Origin: Patescibacteria group bacterium
Lineage (GTDB): Bacteria > Patescibacteriota > Microgenomatia > UBA1406
Assembly (NCBI GenBank): GCA_041665145.1
Contig: JBAYJK010000003.1
Coordinates: forward strand, 5,177 to 69,176
DNA: 64,000 bases
Reading direction: 5' to 3'
Shown here: piece after piece, positions 9,120 to 57,690 of the stretch
How the letters are laid out: each line of letters opens with the position of its first letter
Position numbering within the stretch: the first letter of the stretch is position 1
The notes under the pieces: generated by a model
What the model saw: the letters and a program-made list of their open reading frames with translations, nothing else
What the model was told of the DNA's origin: nothing
Database searches by the model: none
Translations under genes and position numbers: made by a program

Positions 9120-9937
9120 GACCTAGAAGAATTTCTCAGCAAATTAAATAAAGCAATTTTTACTCTTGGCGGAATAGTATAAATGGAAATCCATTGAACT
9201 ACGTTATAGATCCGATCAAACAAATTCATCGAGTAGCCACCTACCCCATTATTTTTATTGCGGATCTCCAGTGTCGATAACTCAATCTTTTTGAGCCGTT
9301 TAAATGTCGCGGAAGAATTATGTTCTCTATACCGCAAGGTCACAAACGGAAGATTCGCAAATTCATATTTCGTCCCTATTCTGAAAGACATATCGATGTC
9401 TTCTGCCGGCGGGTATGCGGGGTTATATAAACCTACTTTGTCAAAACACTCTTTACGGATCATTGCCGTCGGTTGTGCTACCGGCGAATAACGGAATATT
9501 GTCTTACGCAAACTTTTGTCGTCGGTTGCATACTTACGGATACTTTTGTCGGTGGTACCGTCAAAAAATTGCAGATAGCCCCCGACAATACCCACACTTG
9601 GGTGTGCTTCCATGAAATCGAATTGTTTCCGAATTCTGTCAGGTATGGAAATGTCATCAGCATCTTGCCATGCAATATACTTTCCCTGCGCGAGTTTTAC
9701 CAACGTATTTCGGTTTTCTGCAATATACACATTTTTCTTATTCCGGTACGCACGTATCCGTTTGTCTTTTTTTACGTATTTTTGGATGACGTCCCACGTT
9801 GCATCTGTCGAACAGTCGTCGGAGATAATAAGTTCGAAGTCCCGGAATGACTGGTTGAGAATGCTTTCAATCGCCTCTCCGATATACTTTTCGGCGTTGA
9901 ATGCCGGCATCAGAACTGATACAAGAGGCTCCGTCAT
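9116..9937 (-). CDS. Family 2 glycosyltransferase
   Basis: 273 aa. VSVLMPAFNAEKYIGEAIESILNQSFRDFELIISDDCSTD is the classic GT2 signature. Confidence 0.85.
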   Translation of the reverse strand: MTEPLVSVLMPAFNAEKYIGEAIESILNQSFRDFELIISDDCSTDATWDVIQKYVKKDKRIRAYRNKKNVYIAENRNTLVKLAQGKYIAWQDADDISIPDRIRKQFDFMEAHPSVGIVGGYLQFFDGTTDKSIRKYATDDKSLRKTIFRYSPVAQPTAMIRKECFDKVGLYNPAYPPAEDIDMSFRIGTKYEFANLPFVTLRYREHNSSATFKRLKKIELSTLEIRNKNNGVGGYSMNLFDRIYNVVQWISIYTIPPRVKIALFNLLRNSSRS

Positions 9938-10728
9938 GTTTTGGGAAAAACGACTAAATCCGAAGGTTTTTCCAAACGCTGATGCGATGATTTGTAGTAC
10001 CTGACGATATTTAATCGGTAGAATATTGCAAGCGTATCCTGAAAAATTCCCCTGATCGCGCCGAGTGTTGCTGCTGATGTGACGGAGGCAAGTTGGTAGT
10101 CCATTTTTATGGGAGCTTCATAGATCCGTTTGAACCCCAGGGAATTTGCGACAACCAGCATTTCCAGATCTCCGGCGAATTTTTTTTCAATCAATCTCGG
10201 TAAAACTTTTTCCAGTACATGTTTCTTATAAATCTTTATACCTGCCTGGGTGTCTCGCACGGAAATACCGAACAAAATTTTGACGAACAGGTAATATCCG
10301 TAACTCAGAATTTTTCTCATTACCGAGTAATTGACTAGCGACGCAGGGTGACGTTTGCTTCCTACAATTATATCGGCGTTATACCATTCCATATGCTCCA
10401 TAAGCATGGAGATGCTGCTCGTATCGATTTCATTACCGGCGTCAAGAAACATGACATAATCTCCTTTTGCATCATGCATACCAAGCTGAATGGCGTACGA
10501 CTTTCCTCTGTTGTCGGCGTAAAAAAGACATTTTACTTTATCTATTTTCGCTTCTTTGATTTTTTCGAATGAACCGTCTATTTTGCCGTCGACTACCGCA
10601 ATAATCTCATAATCATAACGGATGGAATCTAGTGCTTCTTTAATGGATTTCAGGTTTGCGGCGATTGTTTTTTCCTGACGGTACACGGGAACAATAAGGG
10701 AAAGAAAATGCGAATTGATTTTGCTCAT
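9934..10728 (-). CDS. Family 2 glycosyltransferase (polyprenyl-phosphate sugar synthase-like)
   Basis: 264 aa. LSLIVPVYRQEKTI...EIIAVVDG...FLDAGNE are GT-A motifs. Confidence 0.8.
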   Translation of the reverse strand: MSKINSHFLSLIVPVYRQEKTIAANLKSIKEALDSIRYDYEIIAVVDGKIDGSFEKIKEAKIDKVKCLFYADNRGKSYAIQLGMHDAKGDYVMFLDAGNEIDTSSISMLMEHMEWYNADIIVGSKRHPASLVNYSVMRKILSYGYYLFVKILFGISVRDTQAGIKIYKKHVLEKVLPRLIEKKFAGDLEMLVVANSLGFKRIYEAPIKMDYQLASVTSAATLGAIRGIFQDTLAIFYRLNIVRYYKSSHQRLEKPSDLVVFPKT

Positions 10729-10807: not shown

Positions 10808-11785
10808 ATGGTTTTACGAAACACCAAAGAAATCGTCGTCACCGGGTCCATGTCGTGGGACACCATCATGGACTTCCCTTCCCGATTTGTGGACTACCTT
10901 AACCCGGAAAAACTTCACCAGATAAATGTGTCATTTGTCGTCGATAAGTTGGAAAAGCAGATCGGCGGAACGGCAACCAACATTGCATATGCGGCCGCCC
11001 AAACACTTGCCTATTTCCATAAACAAGAAAAATCTGACGGTATAAGCATTAACGTGCTCGGAGGTTTGGGGAAAGATGCGGCCGCCCACCTACGTTTCTT
11101 TAAAAAGCATAAAATAGATACTTCCCGCATCATGATCGACAGGCGGATGTACAGTGCCGCCGGCTCCGTTATTACGGATACGAAAGACAATCAGATTTGG
11201 GGTTTCTATTACGGCGCATCGGTTGCGGCCAAACGGGTTTCTTTAACGGATTTCGTGCCGAAAGAAACGATTATGATTATTTCGGCAAATCATCCCGATG
11301 CCTTTCTTCATTTTCAGGAAGAGTGTATTAAATTCCATATTCCGTATATGTATGATCCCGGCATGGCGTTGTCATGGATAACGGACAAAGATTTGACAGA
11401 GGGTGTTTTAAAGGCAACGTATTTAATAGGAAACGATTACGAAATCGCAATGGTTTTGAAGCGGATAAAGCAAACGGTTTCGTCACTCATGAATGAAGGA
11501 GTAAATATTATTACTACGTTAGGAGACAAAGGGGTGAGATATGAATCGACAACGGAGAAATATGAAATTCCCGCTGTTTCAAACATAGAAGCGGTTGACC
11601 CGACAGGAGCGGGAGACGCCTGGCGCGGAGGGTTTCTTACCGCTCTGACGAATGGAAAACCGGTTAAAGAGGCGCTGATTGTCGGTAACGCGGTTGCAAG
11701 TTTTGCCGTTGAACATTACGGCTGTGTCAATTATCATATAACGGCGAAGGAATTCGAAAAGAGGTCTCAATGTCTGAAGGTCTAA
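10808..11785 (+). CDS. PfkB-family carbohydrate/nucleoside kinase (possible adenosine kinase)
   Basis: 325 aa. It carries the PfkB signature DPTGAGDAWRGGF near the C-terminus. It lies next to ahcY. The last 7 codons and the stop are encoded by repeat R1. Confidence 0.8.
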   Translation: MVLRNTKEIVVTGSMSWDTIMDFPSRFVDYLNPEKLHQINVSFVVDKLEKQIGGTATNIAYAAAQTLAYFHKQEKSDGISINVLGGLGKDAAAHLRFFKKHKIDTSRIMIDRRMYSAAGSVITDTKDNQIWGFYYGASVAAKRVSLTDFVPKETIMIISANHPDAFLHFQEECIKFHIPYMYDPGMALSWITDKDLTEGVLKATYLIGNDYEIAMVLKRIKQTVSSLMNEGVNIITTLGDKGVRYESTTEKYEIPAVSNIEAVDPTGAGDAWRGGFLTALTNGKPVKEALIVGNAVASFAVEHYGCVNYHITAKEFEKRSQCLKV

Positions 11786-11820
11786 ATGTCTGAGAGTCCC
11801 GAGTCGCGGGTCATGGGTCT
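11764..11820. repeat. R1: GTCTRAWT 8-nt phased array (GTCT orientation only)
   Basis: Units are gtctcaat gtctgaag gtctaaat gtctgaga gtcccgag, followed by GC-rich degenerate units. The pfkB stop TAA 11783..11785 lies inside one unit. Confidence 0.85.
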
Positions 11821-13146: not shown

Positions 13147-13248
13147 AAGTTAGAAAGTTGAAAGCAGAAAGTCTGAAAGTCCGAATGTCTGAATGTCTGA
13201 ATGTCAAATTGTCGACATTAAGACTTTTAGACACTAAGACATTCAGAC
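13147..13248. repeat. R2: palindromic GTCTRAWT/AWTYAGAC element centred on GTCGAC (13211..13216)
   Basis: The left arm is gtctgaaa gtccgaat gtctgaat gtctgaat gtcaaatt. The right arm is attaagac ttttagac actaagac attcagac. It lies between ahcY and pyk. Confidence 0.85.
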
Positions 13249-13284: not shown

Positions 13285-14718
13285 ATGAATAAATTTACAA
13301 AAATAATCGCAACAATCGGTCCGGCGACTGATGATCCGGAAATGATAGAAAAACTTATCGAAGCAGGTGTTAACATTTTCCGTTATAACTTTAAGCACAA
13401 TACCGTAGAATGGCACAACGAGCGTATCCGCAGAGTGAATGCGGTTTCCAAGAAAATGGGAGTGCATGTGGGAAAACTGATCGATCTTCAGGGACCAGAA
13501 ATTCGTATCAAGATGGCGCAGGATTCCATTACCATTAAAGAAGGTGATGAATTGCTGTTCGATGAATCCATGCTCATAAATAAAGGCCAAGGGTTCTCCA
13601 TTTCGCATCCCAGTATTATTGAGCACATGACGGACGGGCAAAAACTCTTAGCGGATGACGGAAGTTTTACGTTTGTCGTGAAGCGGGAGAAAGGCAAATG
13701 CTACTTGGTAAGCCATTCGGAAGGTGTGTTGAAAAATAACAAGTCCCTCAATATGCCCGGATCTAAGTTCCCTCTTCCTGTTCTTATCGAACGAGATTTT
13801 GACGGTCTCAAACTTGCGCAAATGGGAGAAGTAGATTTTGTGGCCTTGTCGTTTGTCAGGACCAAGGAAGATGTCCTTACCCTTCGAAAAGAAATGAAAA
13901 AACTCGGACTGGTGGCAAAAGTGGTTTCAAAAATAGAAACACAGGTTGCTCTCGACAACTTTGATGAAATTTTGTCGGCGTCTGACGCAATCATGGTTGC
14001 CCGCGGAGACTTGGGTGTTGAAATTCCCATCGAACAGGTACCGTACTATCAGAAAATGATGATCAAACGCTGTTTCCAAAAAGGCGTTTCGGTTATAACC
14101 GCAACACAGATGTTGCAAACCATGATCGATAACCCGTTCCCGACTCGCGCAGAAGTATCTGACGTTGCAAACGCGACATATGATTTTACGGATGCAGTTA
14201 TGCTTTCGGGTGAAACTGCAAGCGGCAAGTACCCTCTGCAGGCGGTAAAGATGATGGCGAAAACCGTTGCGTTCAATGAACAAAAACCGTATGCGGATAC
14301 CCGTTCGCTATACCAATTCGAACTTGGTGATCAGGAGCAGAGACTTTCCGACGCGGCATATAACTTGTATATTCAATCATTGAATGTCGAAAATACCATC
14401 GCCGGGTTTGTGATACTTACCGAAACCGGGAGGACGGCTCAACTGCTTTCCCGCTACCGAGCCAAGGCGCCTATTTTCGCCATTTGTCCCACGAAAAAAG
14501 TAGCCGACACGCTGTCCATCAACTTTGCGGTAACGCCGTTCGTCCGTGACGAAGTCTACTCGAAAGACAAGGAAGTCACGAGTGATGACGTGGTGAAAGT
14601 AATCAGCTACCTGCACAAAAACAAGATTCTCAAAAAAGGGCAGAAAGTTGTGGTTCTCCACGGTGACTACTGGGCGGTTGAAGGCGGAACGAGTACCGTA
14701 AAAATAGTCGAGGTCTAA
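13285..14718 (+). CDS. pyk: Pyruvate kinase
   Basis: 477 aa. TKIIATIGPAT start, MVARGDLGVEIP, and a typical barrel plus C-terminal domain. The stop TAA lies inside the first R3 unit. Confidence 0.95.
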   Translation: MNKFTKIIATIGPATDDPEMIEKLIEAGVNIFRYNFKHNTVEWHNERIRRVNAVSKKMGVHVGKLIDLQGPEIRIKMAQDSITIKEGDELLFDESMLINKGQGFSISHPSIIEHMTDGQKLLADDGSFTFVVKREKGKCYLVSHSEGVLKNNKSLNMPGSKFPLPVLIERDFDGLKLAQMGEVDFVALSFVRTKEDVLTLRKEMKKLGLVAKVVSKIETQVALDNFDEILSASDAIMVARGDLGVEIPIEQVPYYQKMMIKRCFQKGVSVITATQMLQTMIDNPFPTRAEVSDVANATYDFTDAVMLSGETASGKYPLQAVKMMAKTVAFNEQKPYADTRSLYQFELGDQEQRLSDAAYNLYIQSLNVENTIAGFVILTETGRTAQLLSRYRAKAPIFAICPTKKVADTLSINFAVTPFVRDEVYSKDKEVTSDDVVKVISYLHKNKILKKGQKVVVLHGDYWAVEGGTSTVKIVEV

Positions 14719-14808
14719 ATGTCGCGAGTCGCGAGTCTGAATGTCTAAGTGTCTGAATGTCCATTAGTCTGTCAGACAATCAGACGCGTGACGCTCAGAC
14801 GCTTAGAC
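14713..14808. repeat. R3: palindromic GTCTRAWT/AWTYAGAC element
   Basis: The left arm is gtctaaat gtcgcgag tcgcgag tctgaat gtctaagt gtctgaat gtccatta gtct. The right arm is gtcagac aatcagac gcgtgac gctcagac gcttagac. Confidence 0.85.
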
Positions 14809-14811
14809 TGA

Positions 14812-14817
14812 TATAAT
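14812..14817 (+). promoter_or_regulatory. -10 box (TATAAT) 6 nt upstream of the lepA ATG
   Basis: TATAAT at 14812..14817 and ATG at 14824, with no SD. Confidence 0.5.
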
Positions 14818-14823
14818 ACCTTC

Positions 14824-16653
14824 ATGAATGTTTCGAGTATTCGTAATTTTGCCATTATCGCCCATGTTGATCACGGTAAGTCTACTTTGGCTGACCGGCT
14901 TTTGGAATTAACGCATGTCGTTACCCCCGGTAAGCACGATGAACAACTCTTGGATAGAAACCCTATATCACGTGAACGAGGAATAACCATCAAACTGGCA
15001 CCGGTGACGATGAAATACAGAGCACAGTCTAAAAGCCCGCCTGCCGGCGAGGCAGGTCTCAATGTCTCAATGTCCGAAAGTCGACATTTAGACACTCAGA
15101 CATTCAGACCTTCAGATGAGTTTACTCTGAATCTTGTTGATACCCCCGGCCATGTCGATTTTTCGTATGAAGTCGAACGAACCCTGGCGTGTGTAGAGGG
15201 CGTCATTTTACTCGTTGACGCGACCCAGGGGATTCAGGCGCAAACGATTGCACATGCGTACAAAGCACTTGAACAGAACCTGACGATTATTCCCGTTGTG
15301 AACAAAATAGATATGGAAAATGCACAGGTGGATAAAACTATTGCGGAGCTTGTCGAATTCCTGGGAGTGAAACCCGAAGAAGTGTACAAAATCTCGGCCA
15401 AAACCGGCATCGGTGTACAAGAACTTCTTGATGCAGTTATCGAACAAGTACCCCCGCCGTCGGACAGCGAATACCGAAAATCGAACATAGAAACGTTGGA
15501 TCACACCAAGTGTCTGATCTTTGATTCGTACTATGATCCGCACCGCGGAGTTATTGCCTTTGCCCGGGTTTTTAACGGTGAAGTGAAAAAGAATACCAAG
15601 CTGTGGTTACAAGCTACCCAAAAATCTTTTGATGTTATGGAAGTCGGTATTTTTACGCCGGATCTTACGCCTACCGAAACATTGGAAGACGGACAAATCG
15701 GGTACATTGTGACAAACCTGAAAGATATCCATGACGTGCAGGTGGGAGATACTCTCAGCACTATTCAGCGTGATACCATGCTTTCCGGATATCGGAAAGT
15801 AAAACCGATGGTCTACGGTTCCGTGTTTCCGACGGACCCCGACGAATATATCGACTTAAAAAAATCTTTGGAAAAGTTGTATTTAAATGACGCTGCGCTG
15901 ACCTTTGAACCCATTTTCAGCAAGGCGATGGGCGGAGGTTTTCGTATCGGTTTTCTGGGACTACTGCACGCCGACGTTACGCGTGAACGACTTGAACGGG
16001 AATTCGAGCAGAGCTTGGTGCTTACGCCTCCGAAAGTGGAATATGAAAATCATGACGGAACATTTTACGAGCCGTTTGTTTCCGTAACCGTTGTCACTCC
16101 CCAACCCTACATGGGCGGTGTGATGCAGCTTTGCGAAGAATCACGGGCCAGCTATAAACATATGGATAATAAGAACCAGATTATCTTGGTTTATGAAATG
16201 CCTTTGGTGGAACTTATCGGACAGTTCTTCGACCGCTTGAAAAGTATTACGTCGGGGTACGCTTCTCTTGACTGGGAGTTTTTGGAATACCGACCGGTAC
16301 AGGCAGATTACTTGGAAATTCTTTTAAACCTTGAACCGGTGGAAGAGTTTTCCGAGATTGTGGTGCATGAGCGTGCATTCGAACGTGCCCGCGAACTTAC
16401 GAAGAAAATACATGAAATTATTCCCCGACAACAGTACGAAGTGAAAATTCAGGCGCGGTATAAAGGAAAGATTATCGCATCAGAGCGTGTTGCTCCATTT
16501 AGAAAAGATGTTACGGCCAAGCTCTACGGAGGAGACCGCACACGGAAAGACAAGTTGTTGAACAAACAGAAAAAAGGTAAAAAACTCATGAAGAATATCG
16601 GCAAGGTGGAGATTCCAAAAGAAGCATTCATCAAGCTCTTCAAGACGTCCTAA
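14824..16653 (+). CDS. lepA: Elongation factor 4 (LepA) carrying a ~27-aa repeat-derived insertion in the G domain
   Basis: 609 aa. NFAIIAHVDHGKSTL, DTPGHVDF, NKID and the conserved LepA C-terminal domain are present. The segment QSKSPPAGEAGLNVSMSESRHLDTQTFRPSDE has no counterpart in canonical LepA. Confidence 0.95.
   Translation: MNVSSIRNFAIIAHVDHGKSTLADRLLELTHVVTPGKHDEQLLDRNPISRERGITIKLAPVTMKYRAQSKSPPAGEAGLNVSMSESRHLDTQTFRPSDEFTLNLVDTPGHVDFSYEVERTLACVEGVILLVDATQGIQAQTIAHAYKALEQNLTIIPVVNKIDMENAQVDKTIAELVEFLGVKPEEVYKISAKTGIGVQELLDAVIEQVPPPSDSEYRKSNIETLDHTKCLIFDSYYDPHRGVIAFARVFNGEVKKNTKLWLQATQKSFDVMEVGIFTPDLTPTETLEDGQIGYIVTNLKDIHDVQVGDTLSTIQRDTMLSGYRKVKPMVYGSVFPTDPDEYIDLKKSLEKLYLNDAALTFEPIFSKAMGGGFRIGFLGLLHADVTRERLEREFEQSLVLTPPKVEYENHDGTFYEPFVSVTVVTPQPYMGGVMQLCEESRASYKHMDNKNQIILVYEMPLVELIGQFFDRLKSITSGYASLDWEFLEYRPVQADYLEILLNLEPVEEFSEIVVHERAFERARELTKKIHEIIPRQQYEVKIQARYKGKIIASERVAPFRKDVTAKLYGGDRTRKDKLLNKQKKGKKLMKNIGKVEIPKEAFIKLFKTS
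15056..15117. repeat. R4: palindromic GTCT/AGAC element inserted in-frame inside lepA
   Basis: The units are gtctcaat gtctcaat gtccgaaa GTCGAC atttagac actcagac attcagac cttcagat. This is the same architecture and GTCGAC centre as intergenic R2. Confidence 0.85.
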
Positions 16654-19330: not shown

Positions 19331-21112
19331 CTATTTATATCCCTGCGCCTGGATATTGAAGAGTTCCGCGTACAGTCCTTTCTTCTTCATAAGGACTTCG
19401 TGATTTCCTTCTTCGACAATTTTGCCCTCATCCAAAACCAGAATTCGGTCCGCGTTTCGTACGGTTGAGAATCGGTGTGAAATAATAACGACGGTTTTAT
19501 CTTTTTGCAATTGTTGGACGTGTTGAAATATTTCATATTCAGCTTTGGCGTCTATTGCGCTTGTTGGTTCATCTAGAATAAGTATCGGAGCGTTTTTGAA
19601 AAATGCTCGGGCAAGGGCAAGTTTTTGCCACTGCCCGCCCGATAAATCTATGCCGTCCTTAAACATTTTACCCACAACCTGATCAAAGCCGTTCGGAAGA
19701 TTTTTGAGGTACTCCTCTGCCCCGGAATTTTTGATGGCTTCTTTTAAGAGTTCTGAATTCTCGCTGTCTTTCTTGTTTCCAAAAATAACGTTTTCTTTAA
19801 ATGTAAATTGGTACTTAATGAAATCCTGGAAAAGAGCGCCTATTTTTTTGTACCACTTTTCGAGATTAATCTTGCTTATATTCACGCCGTTCACCAAAAT
19901 CTCTCCCTCTGTTACGTCATAGAATCTCAGTAAGAGTTTTATGAGCGTTGTCTTCCCTGCCCCGTTTTCTCCGACCAGTGCAATTTTTTCACCGGAATTA
20001 ATAGTCAGCGAAAAATTCTTCAAAATATACTTCTTGGTGTTCGGATAGCGGAAAGAAATATTTCTGAATTCGATGTGCGGAGGGGCCGGAGTATCGGGTA
20101 TAGTGAGCGCATTTTCCGGCGATTGGATTACTTTCCCCTTCGCCATGAACTCAAAATATTTTTCAACATATTTATTTCTCATGGAGATACTGGAATAAAT
20201 GTCCAACATTCCATGAGAACCGGACATAAGGTTTTGTGTCTGCTGGAAATAGAGGGCAAATTGGCCGATACCGAGCGTACCTGCAAGAACCGCTTTCAGG
20301 TTCATTGTCTGGGTAAAAAGGAAGGCCGCGAGTTCAAAAAAACGGGTCAGAATAACACCGGGTAACCCTGCACCTGACGCTTTTGTAAACTTTTGTATAT
20401 AGGACTTCTGATGCAATTTCATTTTGTTGTACAGTATGTCCCCTGTCTTATAAATAACCACTTCCTTAGATGTTCCATCCTGGGACAACAGGTTCTTGAT
20501 GTATTGTGTTACTCGCACGAGCAAAGAACGTTCTTCCACAAAGTACTTCCACACCTTACTGCGATAGTGATCGAGAGAAAAGAAGGAAGGAATAGTGGCT
20601 ATAAGCATAATGGGAACAAAAATCGGAAAAGCAACGGATACAATTACCGCAGCAGTCAGGAACTTGAATGCAGCATCGATAAACGCGGTTATTCGGGTGA
20701 CATTGACGGTTATTGTTCCCTTCACTCCTTCAATTTGCGACAAAAGATTTTGAAACTCAGGGTCTTCAAAAGTTGCCGGATCAAGCTGTGTTAATTTTTT
20801 AATGATCTGTTTATCCAGATAATTATCCATTCGCGTATCCAGCAAGACCGATTGTGTTTCCAAAAAACTGTCGATAACATTCAGTATCACGGAGGCAATA
20901 ACAAAAACGGTAAGAAGCCCTGTTAAATCGGAAAATGACAGCTGTTGCTGTTTACCCAACACATCCAGTATCCTTGCAAGGACAAGGACGAGTGCGAATG
21001 GATAAATCGTGCTCTGGTAGATAGAACCGATCAAAGACAGGACCGCGTAATAACGGTTAGCGCCCCACGACAGTTGTAAAACTTTCAGGCTATACTTAAG
21101 AGTCTTTTTCAT
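19331..21112 (-). CDS. ABC exporter, fused permease/ATPase (MsbA-like)
   Basis: 593 aa. The N-terminal region has 6 TM helices. The ATPase has Walker A GENGAGKTT, signature LSGGQWQ and Walker B ILILDEPTS. Confidence 0.9.
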   Translation of the reverse strand: MKKTLKYSLKVLQLSWGANRYYAVLSLIGSIYQSTIYPFALVLVLARILDVLGKQQQLSFSDLTGLLTVFVIASVILNVIDSFLETQSVLLDTRMDNYLDKQIIKKLTQLDPATFEDPEFQNLLSQIEGVKGTITVNVTRITAFIDAAFKFLTAAVIVSVAFPIFVPIMLIATIPSFFSLDHYRSKVWKYFVEERSLLVRVTQYIKNLLSQDGTSKEVVIYKTGDILYNKMKLHQKSYIQKFTKASGAGLPGVILTRFFELAAFLFTQTMNLKAVLAGTLGIGQFALYFQQTQNLMSGSHGMLDIYSSISMRNKYVEKYFEFMAKGKVIQSPENALTIPDTPAPPHIEFRNISFRYPNTKKYILKNFSLTINSGEKIALVGENGAGKTTLIKLLLRFYDVTEGEILVNGVNISKINLEKWYKKIGALFQDFIKYQFTFKENVIFGNKKDSENSELLKEAIKNSGAEEYLKNLPNGFDQVVGKMFKDGIDLSGGQWQKLALARAFFKNAPILILDEPTSAIDAKAEYEIFQHVQQLQKDKTVVIISHRFSTVRNADRILVLDEGKIVEEGNHEVLMKKKGLYAELFNIQAQGYK

Positions 21113-21170
21113 GCTGTTGTATTACTATACAACAAATGTGGCTGCCGGTGCGAAGTGTTATAATTTCTTC

Positions 21171-21719
21171 ATGTCCCCGACTACCCAACCTGTTCTTACA
21201 GAAATCCGTGATGCGGATTTTAAAACAGGTTATGTCTCCCCGCTTACGATAAATGATTATGATGTTCGCCGTTGTGCCCGAGGTCCATTAGTGCGTGACG
21301 GAAAGATCGCTCTCTTGTATGTTTCCAAATGGCACTATCACAAACTTCCCGGAGGAGGAATAGAAGATGGAGAAGATATTGCCACAGGTTTTAATCGGGA
21401 AATTTTGGAAGAAACAGGATGTAATTGTGTGGTCCAGAGTGAGGAGGCAAAAACTCCCGTAATTATCGAGTACCGTGACGAATTCAAATTGTGTCAGATA
21501 AACCATCTTATTGCAGCTACGGTTGTTGGAGAACCAAAAAAGGTTGCCTTTACCGGTGATGAAATCGAAGAAGGGTTTCAATTGAAATGGGTTCCAATTG
21601 CGGAAGCAATTCCCCTTTTGGAAAATGACAAACCCACGAACTACGAAGGACTTTTTATACAAAAGCGGGATTTAGCAATCCTGAAATATTTCGCAGATTT
21701 ATTAAACCGATTCAAGTAG
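21171..21719 (+). CDS. NUDIX hydrolase
   Basis: The NUDIX box is GGGIEDGEDIATGFNREILEETG. The start is moved from the track's 21111 to ATG 21171, which lies 6 nt downstream of TATAAT 21159..21164. Confidence 0.85.
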   Translation: MSPTTQPVLTEIRDADFKTGYVSPLTINDYDVRRCARGPLVRDGKIALLYVSKWHYHKLPGGGIEDGEDIATGFNREILEETGCNCVVQSEEAKTPVIIEYRDEFKLCQINHLIAATVVGEPKKVAFTGDEIEEGFQLKWVPIAEAIPLLENDKPTNYEGLFIQKRDLAILKYFADLLNRFK

Positions 21720-22622: not shown

Positions 22623-23801
22623 ATGACACAAAAACTTTTTGACGAAAACGCATATCAGGCAGAATTTGAAGCGACTGTCGTTAGTCAAACGCAAACAGAG
22701 CTTGGCTGGGAAGTTGTTTTGGACAAAACGTGTTTCTTCCCCGAAGGCGGTGGACAAGATTCTGATGCAGGAACTTTGAATGGCCAAAAGGTCAAGAAAC
22801 TGGTTAAGACAGATGACGGAGACATAATCCATGTTATGCAAGAAAAAATTGAACAGTCAACCATTATCGGGCAGATAGACTGGAAGAAACGCTTTCGTAA
22901 CATGCAGCAACATTCCGGTCAACACATCCTCTCTGGGGTCCTGCTCAACACATATAAGTTGCAAACGGAATCGGCCAGTTTTACAGAAAAAGAAGGCCAC
23001 ATAACTTTGGAATGGTCAATTCCCGATAACGACTTGGAAAAGGCACTTATCGCGGCAAATGAAATAATATTTGCAAACAAACCCATAATCACGAAATTTA
23101 TATCATTGGATGAAATAGAAAAGTATAATCTTGCGAAGCTTCCTAAAGATAAATTTACGAAAACGGGGAAAATTCGTATCTGGCAGATAGAAGGGTTTTA
23201 TACCATTCCTTGTGGCGGTACGCACTGCAAGTCGACGGGTGAAATCGGAAATATCTTCGTGAAGAGCAATAAAATTCATGGAAATAGGACAGATCTTAAC
23301 TTTACTACGGGTTTCGTAACGCTGGATTATCTGACGGCAACGAAAAAAATTACTTCCGAACTGGCGAAAATGCTGGAAGTTGGTACGGACGGACTTGTTG
23401 ACGCGACGAAGAAAGTTATGGATGACCGGCATGCGTTGAATTTGGCACTGCGTGAAAACCAGGAACAGGTTGCGGCACAAAAAGCAGTGCAGATTTTGCA
23501 AACAGCGACAAAGGGAAAAGTTACGTTTACTGCATTTGTTTACTCGGAAGCAGATAAGGGGACGGTAAAAACAACATTGTATCAGCTTGCAGAAACACCA
23601 AACTCCGTGCATATTGCCCATGGCGCGAATGTTCCCCTAACCGTTGTTAGCTCGAAAGATGTATCTCTAGACACGCTTTCAATACTTACTGAATTAAAAA
23701 CAAAATTCAACGGCAAAGGCGGAGGAAGCAAAACCTATTGGCAAGCGATGATTACGGACCACGAACAATTTGTGAAAGAATTAATGGAAAAATTATCGTA
23801 A
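22623..23801 (+). CDS. alaX: AlaX-L-type alanyl-tRNA editing protein
   Basis: It has HSGQHILS and CGGTHC zinc motifs of the tRNA_SAD editing domain and a C-terminal GKGGGS (DHHA1-like). The start is set at the second ATG (22623), 7 nt after TATAAT 22610..22615. The track start 22614 lies inside that box. Confidence 0.8.
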   Translation: MTQKLFDENAYQAEFEATVVSQTQTELGWEVVLDKTCFFPEGGGQDSDAGTLNGQKVKKLVKTDDGDIIHVMQEKIEQSTIIGQIDWKKRFRNMQQHSGQHILSGVLLNTYKLQTESASFTEKEGHITLEWSIPDNDLEKALIAANEIIFANKPIITKFISLDEIEKYNLAKLPKDKFTKTGKIRIWQIEGFYTIPCGGTHCKSTGEIGNIFVKSNKIHGNRTDLNFTTGFVTLDYLTATKKITSELAKMLEVGTDGLVDATKKVMDDRHALNLALRENQEQVAAQKAVQILQTATKGKVTFTAFVYSEADKGTVKTTLYQLAETPNSVHIAHGANVPLTVVSSKDVSLDTLSILTELKTKFNGKGGGSKTYWQAMITDHEQFVKELMEKLS

Positions 23802-24394
23802 TGAAACGCGTATTTATAATTCATCGCTGGAGCGGAAGCCCGGAAAAAGATTGGCTCCCCTGGCTTGTCCGTTCGATTCAGACCTTGAGACCTTCAGACA
23901 TTCAGACGCATGACTCCTATGAAGTCTTTGTCCCTTCCATGCCCGACCCCGACGTTCCCACTATCGAGAACTGGACCACACATTTAAAACATCTGGTGGG
24001 AAAACTGTTGCCAACGGACGTTTTTATTGGCCACAGTATTGGTTGCCAGACAATTTTGCGGTACTTGGAAAAACTCCCCGCGGGTGAAAAAGCGGACAAA
24101 GTTATTCTGGTTGCACCATTTTTAACCTTAAAAGGTCTCGAGACCGAGGAAGAATTTCGTATTGCTAAACCATGGTTACGTACGCTTATCGACCTGCGCC
24201 GCATACCCGACAAAGCAAATTCCTATACCCTACTCTTTTCGGATAATGATCCGTTTGTTCCCCTGGACGAAAACGTGCAGTTGTTTAAAAAATGGATCAA
24301 TCCGGAAATTCACACACTTCACGACAAAGGTCATTTCACCCAAGATGACGGGATTGTCGAACTTCCTGAGCTCCTGAATTTTCTAAGAATTTGA
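23801..24394 (+). CDS. YdeN/RBBP9-like alpha/beta serine hydrolase with a repeat-derived insertion
   Basis: MKRVFIIHRWSGSPEKDWLPWL start, GHSIG nucleophile elbow, C-terminal DKGHF. The start ATG overlaps the alaX stop (TAATG). The track's 23738 start is an upstream in-frame extension. Confidence 0.7.
   Translation: MKRVFIIHRWSGSPEKDWLPWLVRSIQTLRPSDIQTHDSYEVFVPSMPDPDVPTIENWTTHLKHLVGKLLPTDVFIGHSIGCQTILRYLEKLPAGEKADKVILVAPFLTLKGLETEEEFRIAKPWLRTLIDLRRIPDKANSYTLLFSDNDPFVPLDENVQLFKKWINPEIHTLHDKGHFTQDDGIVELPELLNFLRI
23876..23914. repeat. R5: AGAC-orientation half element in-frame inside the hydrolase gene
   Basis: The units attcagac cttgagac cttcagac attcagac gcatgac encode IQTLRPSDIQTHD. Confidence 0.75.
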
Positions 24395-24430: not shown

Positions 24431-24497
24431 GACCCAGTTTCCGAATTGTCACCGTATGGTGTGCGTTCGAAGCAATCGCTTCGATAGGAACTGGGTC
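24431..24497. terminator. Nested stem-loop between convergent genes (possible bidirectional terminator or small structured RNA)
   Basis: The outer stem is gacccagtttcc/ggaactgggtc (11 bp, one bulged T). The inner perfect 7-bp hairpin is tcgaagc-aatc-gcttcga (24467..24484). Confidence 0.35.
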
Positions 24498-24500
24498 GAA

Positions 24501-25127
24501 CTATTTAAACACCCAGATATCTTTTTCTTTTGATTTGATAATTTTTCTGTAGATATTCCAATCTTCGGTCATCTTGTCAAAGTATCTGCGAATTGTGCCA
24601 GCTATCATGTCTGCCATTTGTACGAGCACATCTTTAGATGAGTCCCGAAACCTGATGTTCTTCATAACTGTATTGTTGGTGGAGTTCAAATGTTGGCGAA
24701 GATAGGTACTCAGTTGTGTCCGAAACGCCCGCTCACCTCTTCCATCAATGCGAATTTTAGCGTTTCTGATCGTATTATTGTTGTGTTGTAGTATCTGTCG
24801 TAGTGAGAAATTGTAGAAACTTTCTTTGCTTGTTTGTAAATAGGTACTGTAAATCTGTGGTTTGTTAATAACAATAGCTCGAATTTCATATTTGATGTCG
24901 CTAATTGCGTGAAGAAATGCTTCCCGATATGATCTACTACATCCATTAAATTTGAACTCAAATCTGTCTGATTTCTGCAATTTTTGTTTTAAGCGTTTAA
25001 TTCTGATTGCGGCTTCTTCAGCATCTAAATCATTCTTAAAGACTACCAAAGCTATAACAAAATATGGGCTTGATCCCCGTGCAATCTTAAATCCAGGATC
25101 GCCAGATTCATCTATGAAAATAATCAT
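24501..25127 (-). CDS. DUF3800-like protein
   Basis: The N-terminus MIIFIDESGDPGF is typical of DUF3800. The start is set at ATG 25127, 6 nt downstream of TACAAT (reverse complement of 25134..25139). The track's 25178 start would overlap the divergent MazG promoter. Confidence 0.65.
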   Translation of the reverse strand: MIIFIDESGDPGFKIARGSSPYFVIALVVFKNDLDAEEAAIRIKRLKQKLQKSDRFEFKFNGCSRSYREAFLHAISDIKYEIRAIVINKPQIYSTYLQTSKESFYNFSLRQILQHNNNTIRNAKIRIDGRGERAFRTQLSTYLRQHLNSTNNTVMKNIRFRDSSKDVLVQMADMIAGTIRRYFDKMTEDWNIYRKIIKSKEKDIWVFK

Positions 25128-25198
25128 GTGCTGATTGTAACGTATATAAAATAAAGGATAGAAGTGTATAAACACCAAAAGAGGTATAATTTGTTGTC

Positions 25199-30560: not shown

Positions 30561-30953
30561 ATGAAATACTTTTTACCCCTCTTAACCCTTCTCTTTTTCG
30601 TAGTTGCCTTTGCGTTTCCGGTGACGACGCTTGCCTGGTTGCAGACGTATGAGGTTGGGCCGACTCGCGTATATGGATTTTGGCCGGGACTGATGCATGG
30701 GTTTATCGCACCCTTTGCTCTTATCGGACAATTGTTTGACAACACCATTGTGCTGTATTCATCAGTTAATAACGGCTTCTGGTACAACCTTGGATTCTTA
30801 CTCGGGATTTCCTGTATTATCGGCGGTGGTTCAAAAGGCACCTGTATAAAACAGAAAAAAGACGACGATGAAAAAAAGTTTGTGGCATTTCTGAGGACCA
30901 TAGGAATTATTGCCTTTTTATCTGCAATTGTGAATAAATGGGGGAAGAAATAA
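30561..30953 (+). CDS. Small membrane protein, unknown function
   Basis: 130 aa with 3-4 hydrophobic helices. TATACT lies 9 nt upstream of the ATG. It was chosen over the antisense 30545..30901 ORF because of the helix pattern and the promoter. Confidence 0.45.
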   Translation: MKYFLPLLTLLFFVVAFAFPVTTLAWLQTYEVGPTRVYGFWPGLMHGFIAPFALIGQLFDNTIVLYSSVNNGFWYNLGFLLGISCIIGGGSKGTCIKQKKDDDEKKFVAFLRTIGIIAFLSAIVNKWGKK

Positions 30954-30954
30954 C

Positions 30955-31054
30955 GTCGCGAGGCAAAATGTCTGATTGTCTAAAGCTATGCGTCTAATTG
31001 TCTGAGTAATATACGTCTGAGAGTCTCAATGTCTGATTGTCTGAATGTCTCAAT
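30955..31054. repeat. R6: GTCT-orientation array (left arm of a split palindrome around 31060..31422)
   Basis: The units are gtcgcgag...gtctgatt gtctaaag...gtctaatt gtctgagt...gtctgaga gtctcaat gtctgatt gtctgaat gtctcaat. Confidence 0.85.
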
Positions 31055-31059
31055 ACCCC

Positions 31060-31422
31060 TCAATGCGCGAGGTACTTTATGAACCTTGAAAGCTTTACTG
31101 AAATACTGATTAACCGTTTTCTCAACTGATCATATGCTTCCGCATTTATATATGAAAGCTTATGAGCGACCAAAAGCTGGGTTCGTACTTCACCCGCGGA
31201 GCCTTTGGCAATATAAAGAAATCTTTTAAAATCCATATCTGATTCTCTTTCAAATCCTTCGGATATATTGGACGGAATTGAAACTGCTGCCCTCCGTATT
31301 TGATCGGTTAATCCATAATCTTTGTGAAAGGAGGTGTAATTGGTTATTGAGTAAACTTTGCCTACAAGTTCAATAGCCTCTTTCCAGATACTAAGATCCT
31401 CAAAGTAACGAATAGTCGGCAT
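31060..31422 (-). CDS. Four-helix-bundle protein (23S rRNA intervening-sequence protein family)
   Basis: 120 aa. FEDLSIWKEAIEL...DQIRRAAVSIPSNISEGFER...FLYIAKGSAGEVRTQL is the family consensus pattern. Confidence 0.85.
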   Translation of the reverse strand: MPTIRYFEDLSIWKEAIELVGKVYSITNYTSFHKDYGLTDQIRRAAVSIPSNISEGFERESDMDFKRFLYIAKGSAGEVRTQLLVAHKLSYINAEAYDQLRKRLISISVKLSRFIKYLAH

Positions 31423-31473
31423 ATGTTTATCTAAGCAGAATCGTCACAATATACAACGGCTTATAAGCATCAC

Positions 31474-31569
31474 ATATCGACATTTAGACACTTAGACAAT
31501 CAGACAATTAGACTCTTTGACACTCAGACACTTGGACAATCAGACAATCAGACTTTGTGACATTTAGAC
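31474..31569. repeat. R7: twelve perfectly phased AWTYAGAC 8-mers (right arm of the split palindrome)
   Basis: The units are atatcgac atttagac acttagac aatcagac aattagac tctttgac actcagac acttggac aatcagac aatcagac tttgtgac atttagac. Confidence 0.9.
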
Positions 31570-31598
31570 TCTTGAGTAATTTTTGTTACAATGTTCTC

Positions 31599-32429
31599 GT
31601 GCGCAACTTATTTTTTTCTGACCAAGTAAAAAAACTTGCTCCCCTCCTTATTATCCAAGTGGCGTTAGTCGCCGTAGTTATCATGACCGGATTGAATGAG
31701 AAACGGCTCAGTTCGTCTTCCAAGGCATCCGGTGTCGACTGCCCCCCGTACTCCGAGTCCCAGGGCACGTGGTGCGATTACCGGCATACGACGGACGAGA
31801 ACAACCGGGATGCTCCTGTTCTCAATCCGAACTATTTGGATACGTACAACGACTGTTGGGATAAATGCGTGAAGCTCGACACTACTCAGTGCAATGGCGT
31901 GTGTCACTACGGAAGCGCTACCGTGTGTGTGCAAGAAGGTGTTTGGGCAGCAAATGCAACCCAGTGTAGCTATATCTGTAACTGGGCATGTTGTGGAGGA
32001 AAGCCCAAGATTTCCGCCTGTACCGGCGGCCCGGTTGAACCGATAGCAACAAGAGCGCCGCAACAGCCGACAACGCCTCCAGCTCAACCTACCCAGCCTC
32101 CCTATGTGCCGCCGACACAGCCGCCGTATGTTCCTCCCGTTCAGCCGACTACCCCACCGAGAATTACTATAGTCCAGCCTTCCACGCCTCCTCCCACCAG
32201 CATTCCTCAGGGAAACATCGACTTCAAACAGCTTGACCAGTATGCAAATCAGCCCACACAAAGTGTAGCTCCCCAGCAGAATACCGGTGACTTTTTAAGC
32301 GGAACGTCTGATTTTGTAAACGGAGTCGGGTCGCGCATTGCATTTGAGGCGAACCTGAACTCCAAACGCCTGTGGTACCTGCTGCAGGGAATCTGGTATA
32401 CCGTCAGTAAACCCTTCCTCAAACCGTAA
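31599..32429 (+). CDS. Membrane-anchored Cys-rich / Pro-rich secreted protein
   Basis: It has a TM anchor LAPLLIIQVALVAVVIMTGL, a Cys-rich ~100-aa domain, then PTQPPYVPPTQPPYVPPVQP repeats. The start is set at GTG 31599, 6 nt after TACAAT 31587..31592. The track start 31557 lies inside R7. Confidence 0.5.
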   Translation: MRNLFFSDQVKKLAPLLIIQVALVAVVIMTGLNEKRLSSSSKASGVDCPPYSESQGTWCDYRHTTDENNRDAPVLNPNYLDTYNDCWDKCVKLDTTQCNGVCHYGSATVCVQEGVWAANATQCSYICNWACCGGKPKISACTGGPVEPIATRAPQQPTTPPAQPTQPPYVPPTQPPYVPPVQPTTPPRITIVQPSTPPPTSIPQGNIDFKQLDQYANQPTQSVAPQQNTGDFLSGTSDFVNGVGSRIAFEANLNSKRLWYLLQGIWYTVSKPFLKP

Positions 32430-33986: not shown

Positions 33987-34100
33987 GTCATGGATCACGA
34001 GTCACACGTCTAATTGTCTCAATGTCTGAATGTCTGAGCGTCACGAGTCGAGAGTCACGCGTCTCAATGTCAGAATGTCTGAAAGTCTAAATGTCTAATT
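33987..34100. repeat. R8: long GTCT-orientation array between convergent genes
   Basis: The units are gtcatgga tcacgag tcacac gtctaatt gtctcaat gtctgaat gtctgagc gtcacgag tcgagag tcacgc gtctcaat gtcagaat gtctgaaa gtctaaat gtctaatt. The last unit supplies the stop of 34095..34505. Confidence 0.85.
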
Positions 34101-37896: not shown

Positions 37897-37987
37897 GTCT
37901 AAATGTCTAAATGTCTAAGTGTCTAAGTGTCTAAGTGTCTCGGTATTTCTCAGACCTTAAGACATTCGGACAATTAGACCTTCTGAC
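37897..37987. repeat. R9: palindromic GTCTRAWT/AWTYAGAC element between ppa and gyrA
   Basis: The left arm is gtctaaat x2, gtctaagt x3, gtctcggt. The right arm is (ctc)agac cttaagac attcggac aattagac cttctgac. Confidence 0.9.
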
Positions 37988-54354: not shown

Positions 54355-54438
54355 GTTCACCTGTCACATGTCGCGCGTCACGGGTCACGAGTCTAAGAGT
54401 CTGAATGTCTGAATGTCTGAATGTCTAAGTGTCTAGGG
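54355..54438. repeat. R10: GTCT-orientation array between the NUDIX gene and rarA
   Basis: The units are gtcacat gtcgcgc gtcacgg gtcacga gtctaaga gtctgaat x3 gtctaagt gtctaggg. The last unit supplies the NUDIX stop codon (reverse complement of CTA 54433..54435). Confidence 0.9.
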
Positions 54439-54915
54439 CTGCTCAATTGTCAATGAAAGGAGTTTGTTGCCGTATTCGTACTCGGCTGAATAAGACACCG
54501 GAGGTTTGGTTTCGTCAAGCAGTATGGGTAATACCGTTTTTAATTCGGCAAGCAGACTGTCTTTTTGCAATATTTCTTCCTGAGTAAGCCAGACAAATTC
54601 CCCGTCTCCGTTTGGCTTGAGCGTTCCACTATCATAATCGGCAAGTAACAAGTGAAAAAAGAATTCCTCTTTCAAGTCGCCGATGTAGGCATTTCCTATT
54701 GCACGAACACGAAGGTTTTTAACTTTCAAACCGGTTTCTTCCATAACCTCCCTGCGCGCACAAGCGTACAGACCTTCATTAAATTCCAAATGTCCGCCTG
54801 CTGCCATCCATACGTTCGGCATGATCCGTTTTGTGGGGTTGCGGTGCAACATGAGGTATTTATTTCCCTTCTTAATAAAGCACTCGAGGGTAACGGCAAT
54901 ATTGCGGTCTTTCAT
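54433..54915 (-). CDS. NUDIX hydrolase
   Basis: 160 aa. The NUDIX box is GGHLEFNEGLYACARREVMEETG. The ATG lies 4 nt downstream of the tRNA-Pro 3' end. Confidence 0.8.
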   Translation of the reverse strand: MKDRNIAVTLECFIKKGNKYLMLHRNPTKRIMPNVWMAAGGHLEFNEGLYACARREVMEETGLKVKNLRVRAIGNAYIGDLKEEFFFHLLLADYDSGTLKPNGDGEFVWLTQEEILQKDSLLAELKTVLPILLDETKPPVSYSAEYEYGNKLLSLTIEQP

Positions 54916-57534: not shown

Positions 57535-57561
57535 GTGCTAAGTATACATAAATCTAGGGTA

Positions 57562-57690
57562 AATTACACAAATGACAAATTCACAAATATACAAATCAAA
57601 TTCAAAATTAAAATGTTCAAAACGTTTTAATTTTTGTGTATTTATTATTTGAATTTGATTTGATGTTTGTTATTTGAATTTTGTGTAATT
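57562..57690. repeat. Long AT-rich imperfect palindrome (~60-nt arms) between ruvC and ruvA
   Basis: The arms begin and end with aattacacaaa/tttgtgtaatt. The perfect 15-bp core is caaatcaaattcaaa (57592..57606) / tttgaatttgatttg (57648..57662). The centre is aaaacgtttt. Confidence 0.75.

Follow-up and report, generated by a model that had tools for sequence, protein, structure and literature searches.

The lepA gene and its extra segment

The stretch of DNA analysed here, referred to as the window, comprises 64,000 nucleotides (nt) of contig JBAYJK010000003.1 from a Patescibacteria group bacterium (GenBank assembly GCA_041665145.1). Its open reading frame (ORF) 14824..16653 on the plus strand encodes a LepA protein, i.e., elongation factor 4 (EF4), of 609 amino acids (aa), an assignment based on 100% identity to P0001, on invariant alignment columns, and on matches to LepA proteins of solved structure. 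NCBI lists an identical protein, from a Patescibacteria group bacterium, under the name translation elongation factor 4, and the next best homologues are LepAs of Roizmanbacteria/Microgenomates with 65-67% identity. The motifs G1-G5 are intact, and every G-domain residue that is invariant in the LepA family is present. Comparison with homologues and structures places an in-frame insert of about 96 nt (15024..15119, plus strand) in the beta2-beta3 turn of the G domain. These extra 28-32 codons are probably a tolerated, translated copy, devoid of an ORF of its own, of a palindromic repeat that is dispersed in this genome.

The insert amounts to 32 codons beyond the shortest relatives and 27-28 beyond the solved LepAs. 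From RERGITI in switch I to DTPGH (G3), 49 aa are counted in the window LepA; among its 120 best homologues the most frequent length is 17 aa (39/120), 20 homologues have 21 aa, and altogether 66 have a loop of at most 24 aa and the other 54 one of 26-53 aa. When aligned with the LepAs of Aquifex (2ywe), Thermus (4w2e), and E. coli (3cb4), residues 4-69 and 98-215 find their counterparts and residues 70-97 remain unpartnered. The original prediction, made from the letters of the window, had proposed an insert in the G domain, and all residues and bases that it quoted are present. The extra residues relative to canonical LepA are thus real, but the canonical turn of about 5 aa that it assumed is not what the nearest relatives have, namely 2 aa or 6 aa. 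It had also named an alignment with LepA orthologues as a check: the insert is absent in 66/120 of them and the inserts of the others are unrelated, which argues against the possibility that relatives share a homologous peptide encoded by DNA that is not repeat-like.

At the DNA level, the lepA copy is an imperfect palindrome of 4+4 octamers (70 nt; GTCTRANT and ANYAGAC) around GTCGAC, plus a nested GC-rich hairpin of 21 nt. The outermost left octamer, GTCTAAAA (15027..15034), pairs with CTTCAGAT at 15110-15117 in the outer helix of the fold and is followed by the mini-hairpin GCCCGCCTGCCGGCGAGGCAG (15035..15055), which encodes PPAGEAG. The left (GTC) arm then reads GTCTCAAT GTCTCAAT GTCCGAAA GTC (15056..15082) and the right (GAC) arm GAC ATTTAGAC ACTCAGAC ATTCAGAC CTTCAGAT (15083..15117), with the GTCGAC centre at 15080-15085 and all of these features on the plus strand. 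Over 29 nt each (15054-15082 and 15083-15111), the arms are 79% complementary without a spacer. The RNA of the insert folds with -35.1 kcal/mol (z = -4.0; 0/200 shuffles as stable), and a z of -3.9 was obtained when it was folded as DNA. The palindromic array of units had been recognised before, in too short an extent, the additional unit GTCTAAAA and the GC hairpin having been missed. With respect to this hairpin, it was observed that LPAGRQAQ is present in the LepA inserts of P0051 and P0116 and IPAEAGIQ in those of P0027-P0030, possibly a sign that other lineages, too, have GC-rich palindromes of a similar kind at this loop.

The arms of the lepA copy match five other arrays in the window at 25/27 bases, and the best match to the palindrome over its whole length (49/62) is the intergenic copy at 13171-13248, which has GTCGAC as its centre as well, in agreement with the earlier observation on this copy (R2). 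Outside the insert, the rest of the window contains 35 matches to its 12-mers, compared with a control mean of 2.6. Matches to the motif GTCTNANTGTCT with at most one mismatch occur 65 times in the window, where 3.35 are expected and 0/100 shuffles reach 65, and they cluster in ten loci, eight of which are intergenic and two in coding sequence. The proposal that the additional codons stem from a palindromic repeat of the genome itself is well supported by these counts.

The lepA copy is stop-free in exactly one frame, the one in use, and only 3/48 frames are stop-free in the eight intergenic arrays. Its sense arm reads TCA, TCA, and CGA at unit positions 4-6, the positions at which most other units carry stop codons. 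These codons had been put forward as the changes that keep the ORF open; they are indeed present, but only the second TCA lies in frame, and stop codons at the other two positions would not have closed this frame. The TAG in the right arm is out of frame, as had been stated. In an AlphaFold2 model of this LepA based on 98 homologues (predicted template modelling score 0.78, mean predicted local distance difference test score (pLDDT) 82.8), beta2 spans residues 60-66 and beta3 residues 99-106, and residues 67-98 between them are coil with a pLDDT of about 47-53, so that the insert extends the turn of the interswitch hairpin. The model and the alignment to solved LepAs thus agree with the predicted position in a surface loop near the switch regions. 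Judging from its sequence, the insert is most likely translated as a hydrophilic, disordered surface loop, for which SPPAGEAGLNVSMSESR and HLDTQTFRPSDEFTLNLVDTPGHVDFSYEVER are predicted tryptic peptides. In EF-G proteins, too, the length of this hairpin tip is variable, and E. coli can do without lepA under standard conditions; each of these would favour tolerance. An intrinsic terminator was considered for the hairpin and discarded, there being no T-run 3' of it and no terminator-like site reported there; Rfam has no family at the insert.

The repeat family and its gain in this lineage

The consensus derived from 60 units outside lepA is GTCT[G/A]A[A/G/T]T. TGA or TAA occupies unit positions 4-6 in 72% of these units and TCA in 8%, and 24 nt of units in GTC orientation suffice to bring a TGA or TAA into each of the three frames. 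Units of 7 nt (GTCRCGN) occur in short runs at the edges of some arrays. Copies vary in the number and order of their units, range from 39 to about 100 nt, and have no fixed ends. Four copies are palindromic, i.e., a GTC arm followed by a GAC arm: 13171-13248, 14707-14808, the lepA copy, and 37897-37987. The remaining arrays have one arm, and two of these face in opposite directions and bracket a gene.

Among the palindromic arrays, that at 13171..13248 is intergenic, that at 37897..37987 lies between gyrA and a pyrophosphatase gene, and that at 14707..14808 separates the pyruvate kinase gene from lepA and holds the stop codon of the former (14716-14718). The one-armed arrays include 11764..11820, with 8-nt and then 7-nt units, which contains the PfkB stop codon (11783-11785); 33987..34100, with 8-nt and 7-nt units between convergent genes, one of which, glutaredoxin-like, has its stop at 34095-34097; and 54365..54440, with 7-nt and then 8-nt units, which abuts the stop codon of a NUDIX gene (54433-54435). 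The two arms at 30955..31054 and 31479..31569 flank a PF05635 gene that is treated below. Upstream of lepA, a -35-like hexamer GTGACG lies inside the right arm of the array at 14707..14808 (14788-14824 region), and an extended -10 element, TGATATAAT, is found at 14809-14817; as it ends 6 nt 5' of the lepA ATG, a leaderless lepA mRNA is suggested. A similar TATAAT stands right before the ATG of the pyruvate kinase gene at 13285.

The second coding copy (23876..23914, plus strand) is in frame and consists of units in GAC orientation only. The gene that holds it (23801..24394; Pfam PF06821) specifies a YdeN-type serine hydrolase, and the copy encodes IQTLRPSDIQTHD. At this site, the alignment with B. 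subtilis YdeN (1uxo) shows a gap of 9 aa in the latter, and the segment is absent in 38/40 aligned homologues. In P0122, which is the closest relative (68% identity), six additional residues are found here; the DNA that encodes them consists of the heptamers GACCCGT GACCCGA GACCCGC (L230 5050-5080), and no GTCT arrays were found in the spacers of its locus; 7-nt units there and 8-nt units in the window point to unit turnover at a fixed site. The LepA insert contains QTFRPSD and the hydrolase insert QTLRPSD, and this common motif Q-T-[FL]-R-P-S-D arises because a run of octamers passes through each of the three frames in 24 nt.

Roizmanbacteria contigs keep the gene order PfkB, AdoHcyase, pyruvate kinase, lepA, and also that of gyrA, the pyrophosphatase gene, and gyrB. 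In the window, the pyruvate kinase gene and lepA lie 105 nt apart, compared with 27, 13, 5, and 30 nt in L081, L083, L084, and L210, respectively, and the spacer between gyrA and the pyrophosphatase gene is 113 nt here versus 2, 20, and 3 nt in L081, L084, and L208. No GTC arrays occur in L081 to L083. Spacers of 2-30 nt in relatives indicate that the arrays were gained, or greatly expanded, in the lineage of the window, and gain is supported by these comparisons. The nearest homologue (P0003) is a LepA without insert, and the sister P0005 carries a different insert of four AAATYCG heptamers. P0004 (L081), the nearest insert-bearing relative, was considered as a homologous case and set aside, as it has no GTC arrays, and its insert has no match in its own flanks and is not evidently homologous.

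The exact LepA protein is found in two NCBI records of metagenome-assembled genomes (MFA6004879.1 and MFA6421364.1) and in JGI, ENA, and Logan. An independent ENA contig (479,716 bp) is identical to window positions 4824-26653 (21,830 nt), arrays included. The lepA insert is therefore no assembly artefact, a possibility that the original prediction had kept in view.

Single GTCTRAAT units outside arrays are not enriched in the window (4 observed versus 5.2 expected). A role as a DNA-uptake sequence, which could be considered for a unit whose core, GTCTGAA, equals part of the Neisseria uptake sequence, was dropped on this count. A comparison of three GTCTNANT units with metagenomes was uninformative on the spread of the family: among the matches listed, mixed microsatellites were found with GC contents of 26%-70%, many of them apparently eukaryotic. 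A second array family at 57561-57690, AT-rich, palindromic, and built of 8-nt ACAAAT-type units between two minus-strand genes, indicates that more than one unit type coexists in this genome.

The beta2-beta3 turn of LepA in other lineages

Long loops at this turn are found in 54/120 close homologues (45%) and in 19/78 distant homologues from the Candidate Phyla Radiation (CPR; 24%). The distant set served as a control and came from a scan of genome contigs with LepA, which relied on query-specific patterns and yielded only relatives with at most 48% identity, in a collection that does not include the genome of the window. The 19 distant loops measure 25-45 aa, and all come from contigs labelled as CPR lineages or unclassified bacteria. 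When 29 distinct inserts were examined as DNA, the autocorrelation at period 7/8 was at least 0.5 in 15, versus 0/174 control lepA segments, and a fold z of -2.5 or lower was found in 11/29 versus 7/174 controls. Tandem arrays of 7-8-nt units and/or palindromes account for 18/29 inspected CPR inserts.

In several genomes, the insert resembles repeats in its own surroundings. For example, the L085 insert is an octamer palindrome of ATTAACGA / GTTAACCC that is also present in five spacers of the L085 genome, with 43 own-flank 12-mer matches versus 2.5 in controls. The L084 insert is a REPIN-like pair of GC hairpins with GTCAT...ATGAC ends that recurs elsewhere in the L084 locus (31 versus 1.8 in controls), and own-flank matches of the L209 insert number 18 versus about 2. 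Heptamer arrays make up the inserts of L208, L209, and L210, and the L087 insert has the inverted ends GTCATCTCGA / TCGAGATGAC. Side observations on these loci are that the REPIN-like repeat of L084 is also present inside the PfkB coding region (876-1560; 408 aa versus 325-367 aa elsewhere), and that L087 has a Y1 transposase (PF01797) gene (20564-21223) 10 kb from lepA. Just upstream of lepA in L087, there is a pair of palindromic AAACCCT...TTAGGGT heptamer arrays (9815-9949), which shows that spacers of Roizmanbacteria commonly hold short-period palindromic arrays.

In a rough neighbour-joining tree calculated with the loop left out, insert-bearing and insert-free LepAs interleave many times. 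One clade has inserts in all nine of its members (9/9), with unrelated sequences, and a conserved LNPKS tail was noticed in one clade. Repeated insertion at one site and a single old insertion with rapid turnover and frequent loss both fit this pattern, and the turn may be unusually permissive, unusually prone to insertion, or both.

PF05635 cassettes and the origin of the insert

The gene that is bracketed by one-armed arrays (31060..31422, minus strand; Pfam E = 1.3e-38) belongs to PF05635, the 23S rRNA intervening-sequence protein (S23p). Its left (GTC) arm at 30955-31054 and its right (GAC) arm of 12 units at 31479-31569 consist of inverted GTCTRANT units and are 83% complementary over 40 nt. 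A PF05635 gene between such arms has the layout of classical 23S rRNA intervening sequences. No rRNA is present in the 64-kb window, and the idea that the cassette splits a gene was abandoned: the ORFs on either side (30561..30953 and 31557..32429) appear to encode two distinct small proteins, membrane-bound or secreted, which makes the cassette intergenic. Two loci from the GTCTNANT metagenome scan happened to carry PF05635 genes beside arrays, and tblastn of the loci examined revealed three further PF05635 genes, each within inverted 8-nt arrays of its own sequence: L138 1-631 (arms GACAGTGA x16 / GTCTCACT x4), L189 740-1230 (arms GACACTGA), and L068 21000-21460, which lies between atpA and atpG. 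On IMG/VR contigs, inverted arms with a periodicity of 7-8 nt are present at 8/13 distinct PF05635 loci (e.g., L215, L222, L223, and L225). The unit sequence differs per locus. In L222 (likewise L221 and L213), a PglX / type IIG methyltransferase gene continues on both sides of the cassette, the flanks matching profile positions 892-968 and 972-1080, and in L223 it sits at the pre-fingers junction of a gene for DNA polymerase III alpha, with PF07733 ending on one side of it and PF17657 beginning on the other. The lepA copy and the other palindromic arrays of the window appear to be related to these cassettes, though devoid of the ORF. Whether the lepA copy is a miniature of a PF05635-bearing element is evenly balanced on these resemblances in architecture and on the units shared within the window.

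The lepA repeat shares features with several systems already described. Discrete elements of about 100-150 bp with family consensus sequences characterise the Rickettsia palindromic elements (RPEs; Ogata et al. 2000, reviewed in PMC10969869). Palindromic repeats dispersed in many copies in a small genome are found here as well, as are in-frame copies in unrelated housekeeping genes, presumably read as additional peptide, at fold-compatible sites, namely in lepA and the serine hydrolase gene. The window repeat is set apart from the RPE description by its variable array of 8-nt units without fixed ends and by its phylum, and a relationship in sequence would not be expected, so that the likeness to RPEs drawn in the original prediction stands for the outcome and not for family membership or for a discrete element with fixed ends. 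With respect to S23p intervening sequences of 23S rRNA, as in Leptospira and Coxiella, complementary ends that form a long stem are found in the lepA copy and in the PF05635 cassette, and tandem 7-8-nt units with a GAC core are shared with Coxiella, whose intervening sequence comprises an S23p ORF, a terminal stem of 28 bp, and GACAGAT tandem heptamers in variable number and is excised by RNase III (PMC4990558). In contrast to these elements, the lepA copy has no ORF, a PF05635 ORF being present only in the copy at 30955-31569, and it lies in an mRNA instead of helix 25 or 45 of 23S rRNA and is probably translated instead of being excised by RNase III. ORF-less stem-loop intervening sequences also exist in rRNA.

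Short-unit intergenic repeats, e.g., TAACTGA, long simple sequence repeats, and the cyanobacterial STRR heptamers, likewise have units of 7-8 nt and are mostly intergenic, as are 8/10 loci here. TAACTGA heptamers of Beggiatoaceae and cyanobacteria are direct repeats, with one indirect repeat reported, and their reverse copies occur inside ORFs (PMC4679880). Like the window units, they give stops in all frames when forward and overlap upstream stop codons, and their reverse copies in ORFs sit at peripheral positions; the hydrolase copy is a reverse one. Unlike them, the window arrays are mostly palindromic pairs of arms, one of which is located in the core G domain of a conserved translation factor. 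REP/REPIN sequences, which are moved by RAYT (PMC3116915), resemble the LepA-loop inserts of other lineages (L084 and L087) with their inverted GC-rich hairpins and GTCAT...ATGAC ends, whereas the window units are AT-rich octamers instead of GC-rich hairpins of 20-40 bp and no RAYT was seen in the window. Miniature inverted-repeat transposable elements are small, non-coding, and multicopy, with inverted-repeat ends and occasional in-frame gene fusions (PMC10969869), as is the case here; they differ in that the window arrays have no target-site duplication and no defined length, and that the only ORF-bearing copy encodes a four-helix-bundle protein. Since defining features of RPEs, TAACTGA repeats, and S23p elements are each lacking, the lepA repeat falls outside any one family. 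In the literature searched, repeats of this kind were not found described for Patescibacteria.

Most likely the insert is a passenger, selfish or neutral, that LepA tolerates but does not need, and it probably arrived by copying and not by growth in place. A DNA-level event would have brought the repeat to the codons at the tip of the beta2-beta3 hairpin, either as an insertion or through copying from another array by template switching or gene conversion, after which slippage would alter the number of units. The copy would have survived where its length kept the frame and where the only unit with in-frame positions 4-6 read TCA and not TGA/TAA. The ribosome would then read through, and a disordered loop would project from the hairpin tip with the GTPase core untouched.

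Several observations weigh against this explanation or parts of it. Inspection of the flanks gave no target-site duplication at any copy. No transposase was seen in the window, nor among ten array-adjacent ORFs scanned with Pfam, the window representing 64 kb of a genome of about 919 kb. Mobility of the family, as originally proposed, is deduced from presence and absence in relatives, which fit gain. No copying mechanism was observed, and a unique donor copy sought among the window arrays was not found, because five arrays match the lepA arms equally well. The core CCTGCCGGCGAGGCAGG (15040-15056) of the GC hairpin occurs a single time in the window with up to three mismatches allowed, so this part of the insert is left unexplained by the repeat family. 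Translation of the insert is deduced from the reading frame. The link between the lepA copy and PF05635 cassettes consists of one cassette in the window and an architecture seen elsewhere, and PF05635 proteins are not known to have an enzymatic activity. The recurrence of inserts at the LepA turn and the LNPKS tail leave room for a selected role of the loop.

An origin in situ, by polymerase slippage from a chance seed and hairpin-driven inverted duplication without any movement, would account for arrays that vary in unit number and order and have neither fixed ends nor target-site duplications. Arrays of 5-11-nt units, heptamers above all, are ascribed to slippage in other bacteria (Mrazek 2007, as cited in PMC4679880), and the hydrolase site has 7-nt GACCCGN units in the closest relative versus 8-nt units here. 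Such an origin is unlikely, however, as one unit consensus is present at ten separate loci, two copies share the GTCGAC centre, and the syntenic spacers of relatives are too short for precursors; furthermore, the lack of enrichment of single GTCTRAAT units outside arrays (4 versus 5.2) means that seeds for growth in place are not common. It is quite improbable that a loop in the protein or a hairpin in mRNA or DNA, e.g., as a site of RNase III cleavage or of pausing or as an array that binds proteins, is kept in CPR bacteria for the benefit of LepA expression or action. An occupied turn in 45% of close and 24% of distant CPR homologues, inserts in all nine members of one clade, a stable hairpin (z = -4.0), and intergenic arrays that lie at gene boundaries and in one case supply a -35-like hexamer would be in line with a function. 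Inserts are unrelated between lineages, though, LepAs with and without insert interleave on the tree, the loop is of low confidence in the AlphaFold2 model, and the site has neither an Rfam family nor a T-run after the hairpin.

Yeast mitochondria have genes with palindromic inserts that ribosomes bypass. From rRNA, RNase III excises PF05635-type intervening sequences (PMC4990558), so that removal by splicing, as an intein, or by translational bypass, yielding a mature LepA without insert, has models elsewhere. Neither a length that is a multiple of three nor openness in the used frame only would be required by removal; moreover, 96 nt are too short for a group I/II intron or an intein, no Rfam match was obtained, and RNase III cuts without ligation and would destroy the lepA mRNA, all of which makes removal highly improbable. 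The chance of an assembly artefact or a pseudogene is close to negligible: assemblers can be misled by repeats, yet independent assemblies are identical, and the ORF is intact, with 60-71% identity to homologues over the whole length and the invariant G-domain residues kept.

With an ORF-less, translated repeat copy as the preferred explanation of the lepA insert, a broader and more tentative proposal is that S23p elements are a wide, largely unrecognised class of mobile palindromic short-unit arrays, of which the lepA insert would be an ORF-less miniature, and which would enter 23S rRNA and conserved protein genes at recurrent surface-loop sites while their units turn over by lineage. Candidate entry sites would be the beta2-beta3 turn of LepA in CPR bacteria, one PglX / type IIG site, and the pre-fingers junction of DNA polymerase III alpha. 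The lepA case connects, in a concrete and testable way, dispersed short-unit arrays, for which an explanation of their origin is lacking in several phyla, with S23p intervening sequences, for which mobility has been a guess since 1990 without ever being shown. Palindromic repeats that colonise housekeeping genes in frame, up to now a speciality of Rickettsia, are here extended to ultra-small CPR genomes; the basic phenomenon has precedent, and tandem octamers instead of a discrete element are a different architecture for it. At this one turn, a universal translation GTPase accommodates up to about 36 additional residues in nature, and the turn may be of use as a site that naturally tolerates insertions and for marking strains.

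Lastly, at 24431-24501 a DUF3800-IX RNA (Rfam RF02968, 63 bits) adjoins a DUF3800 gene (24501..25178, minus strand), after which genes for a MazG-like protein and an SLFN-g3 helicase are found.

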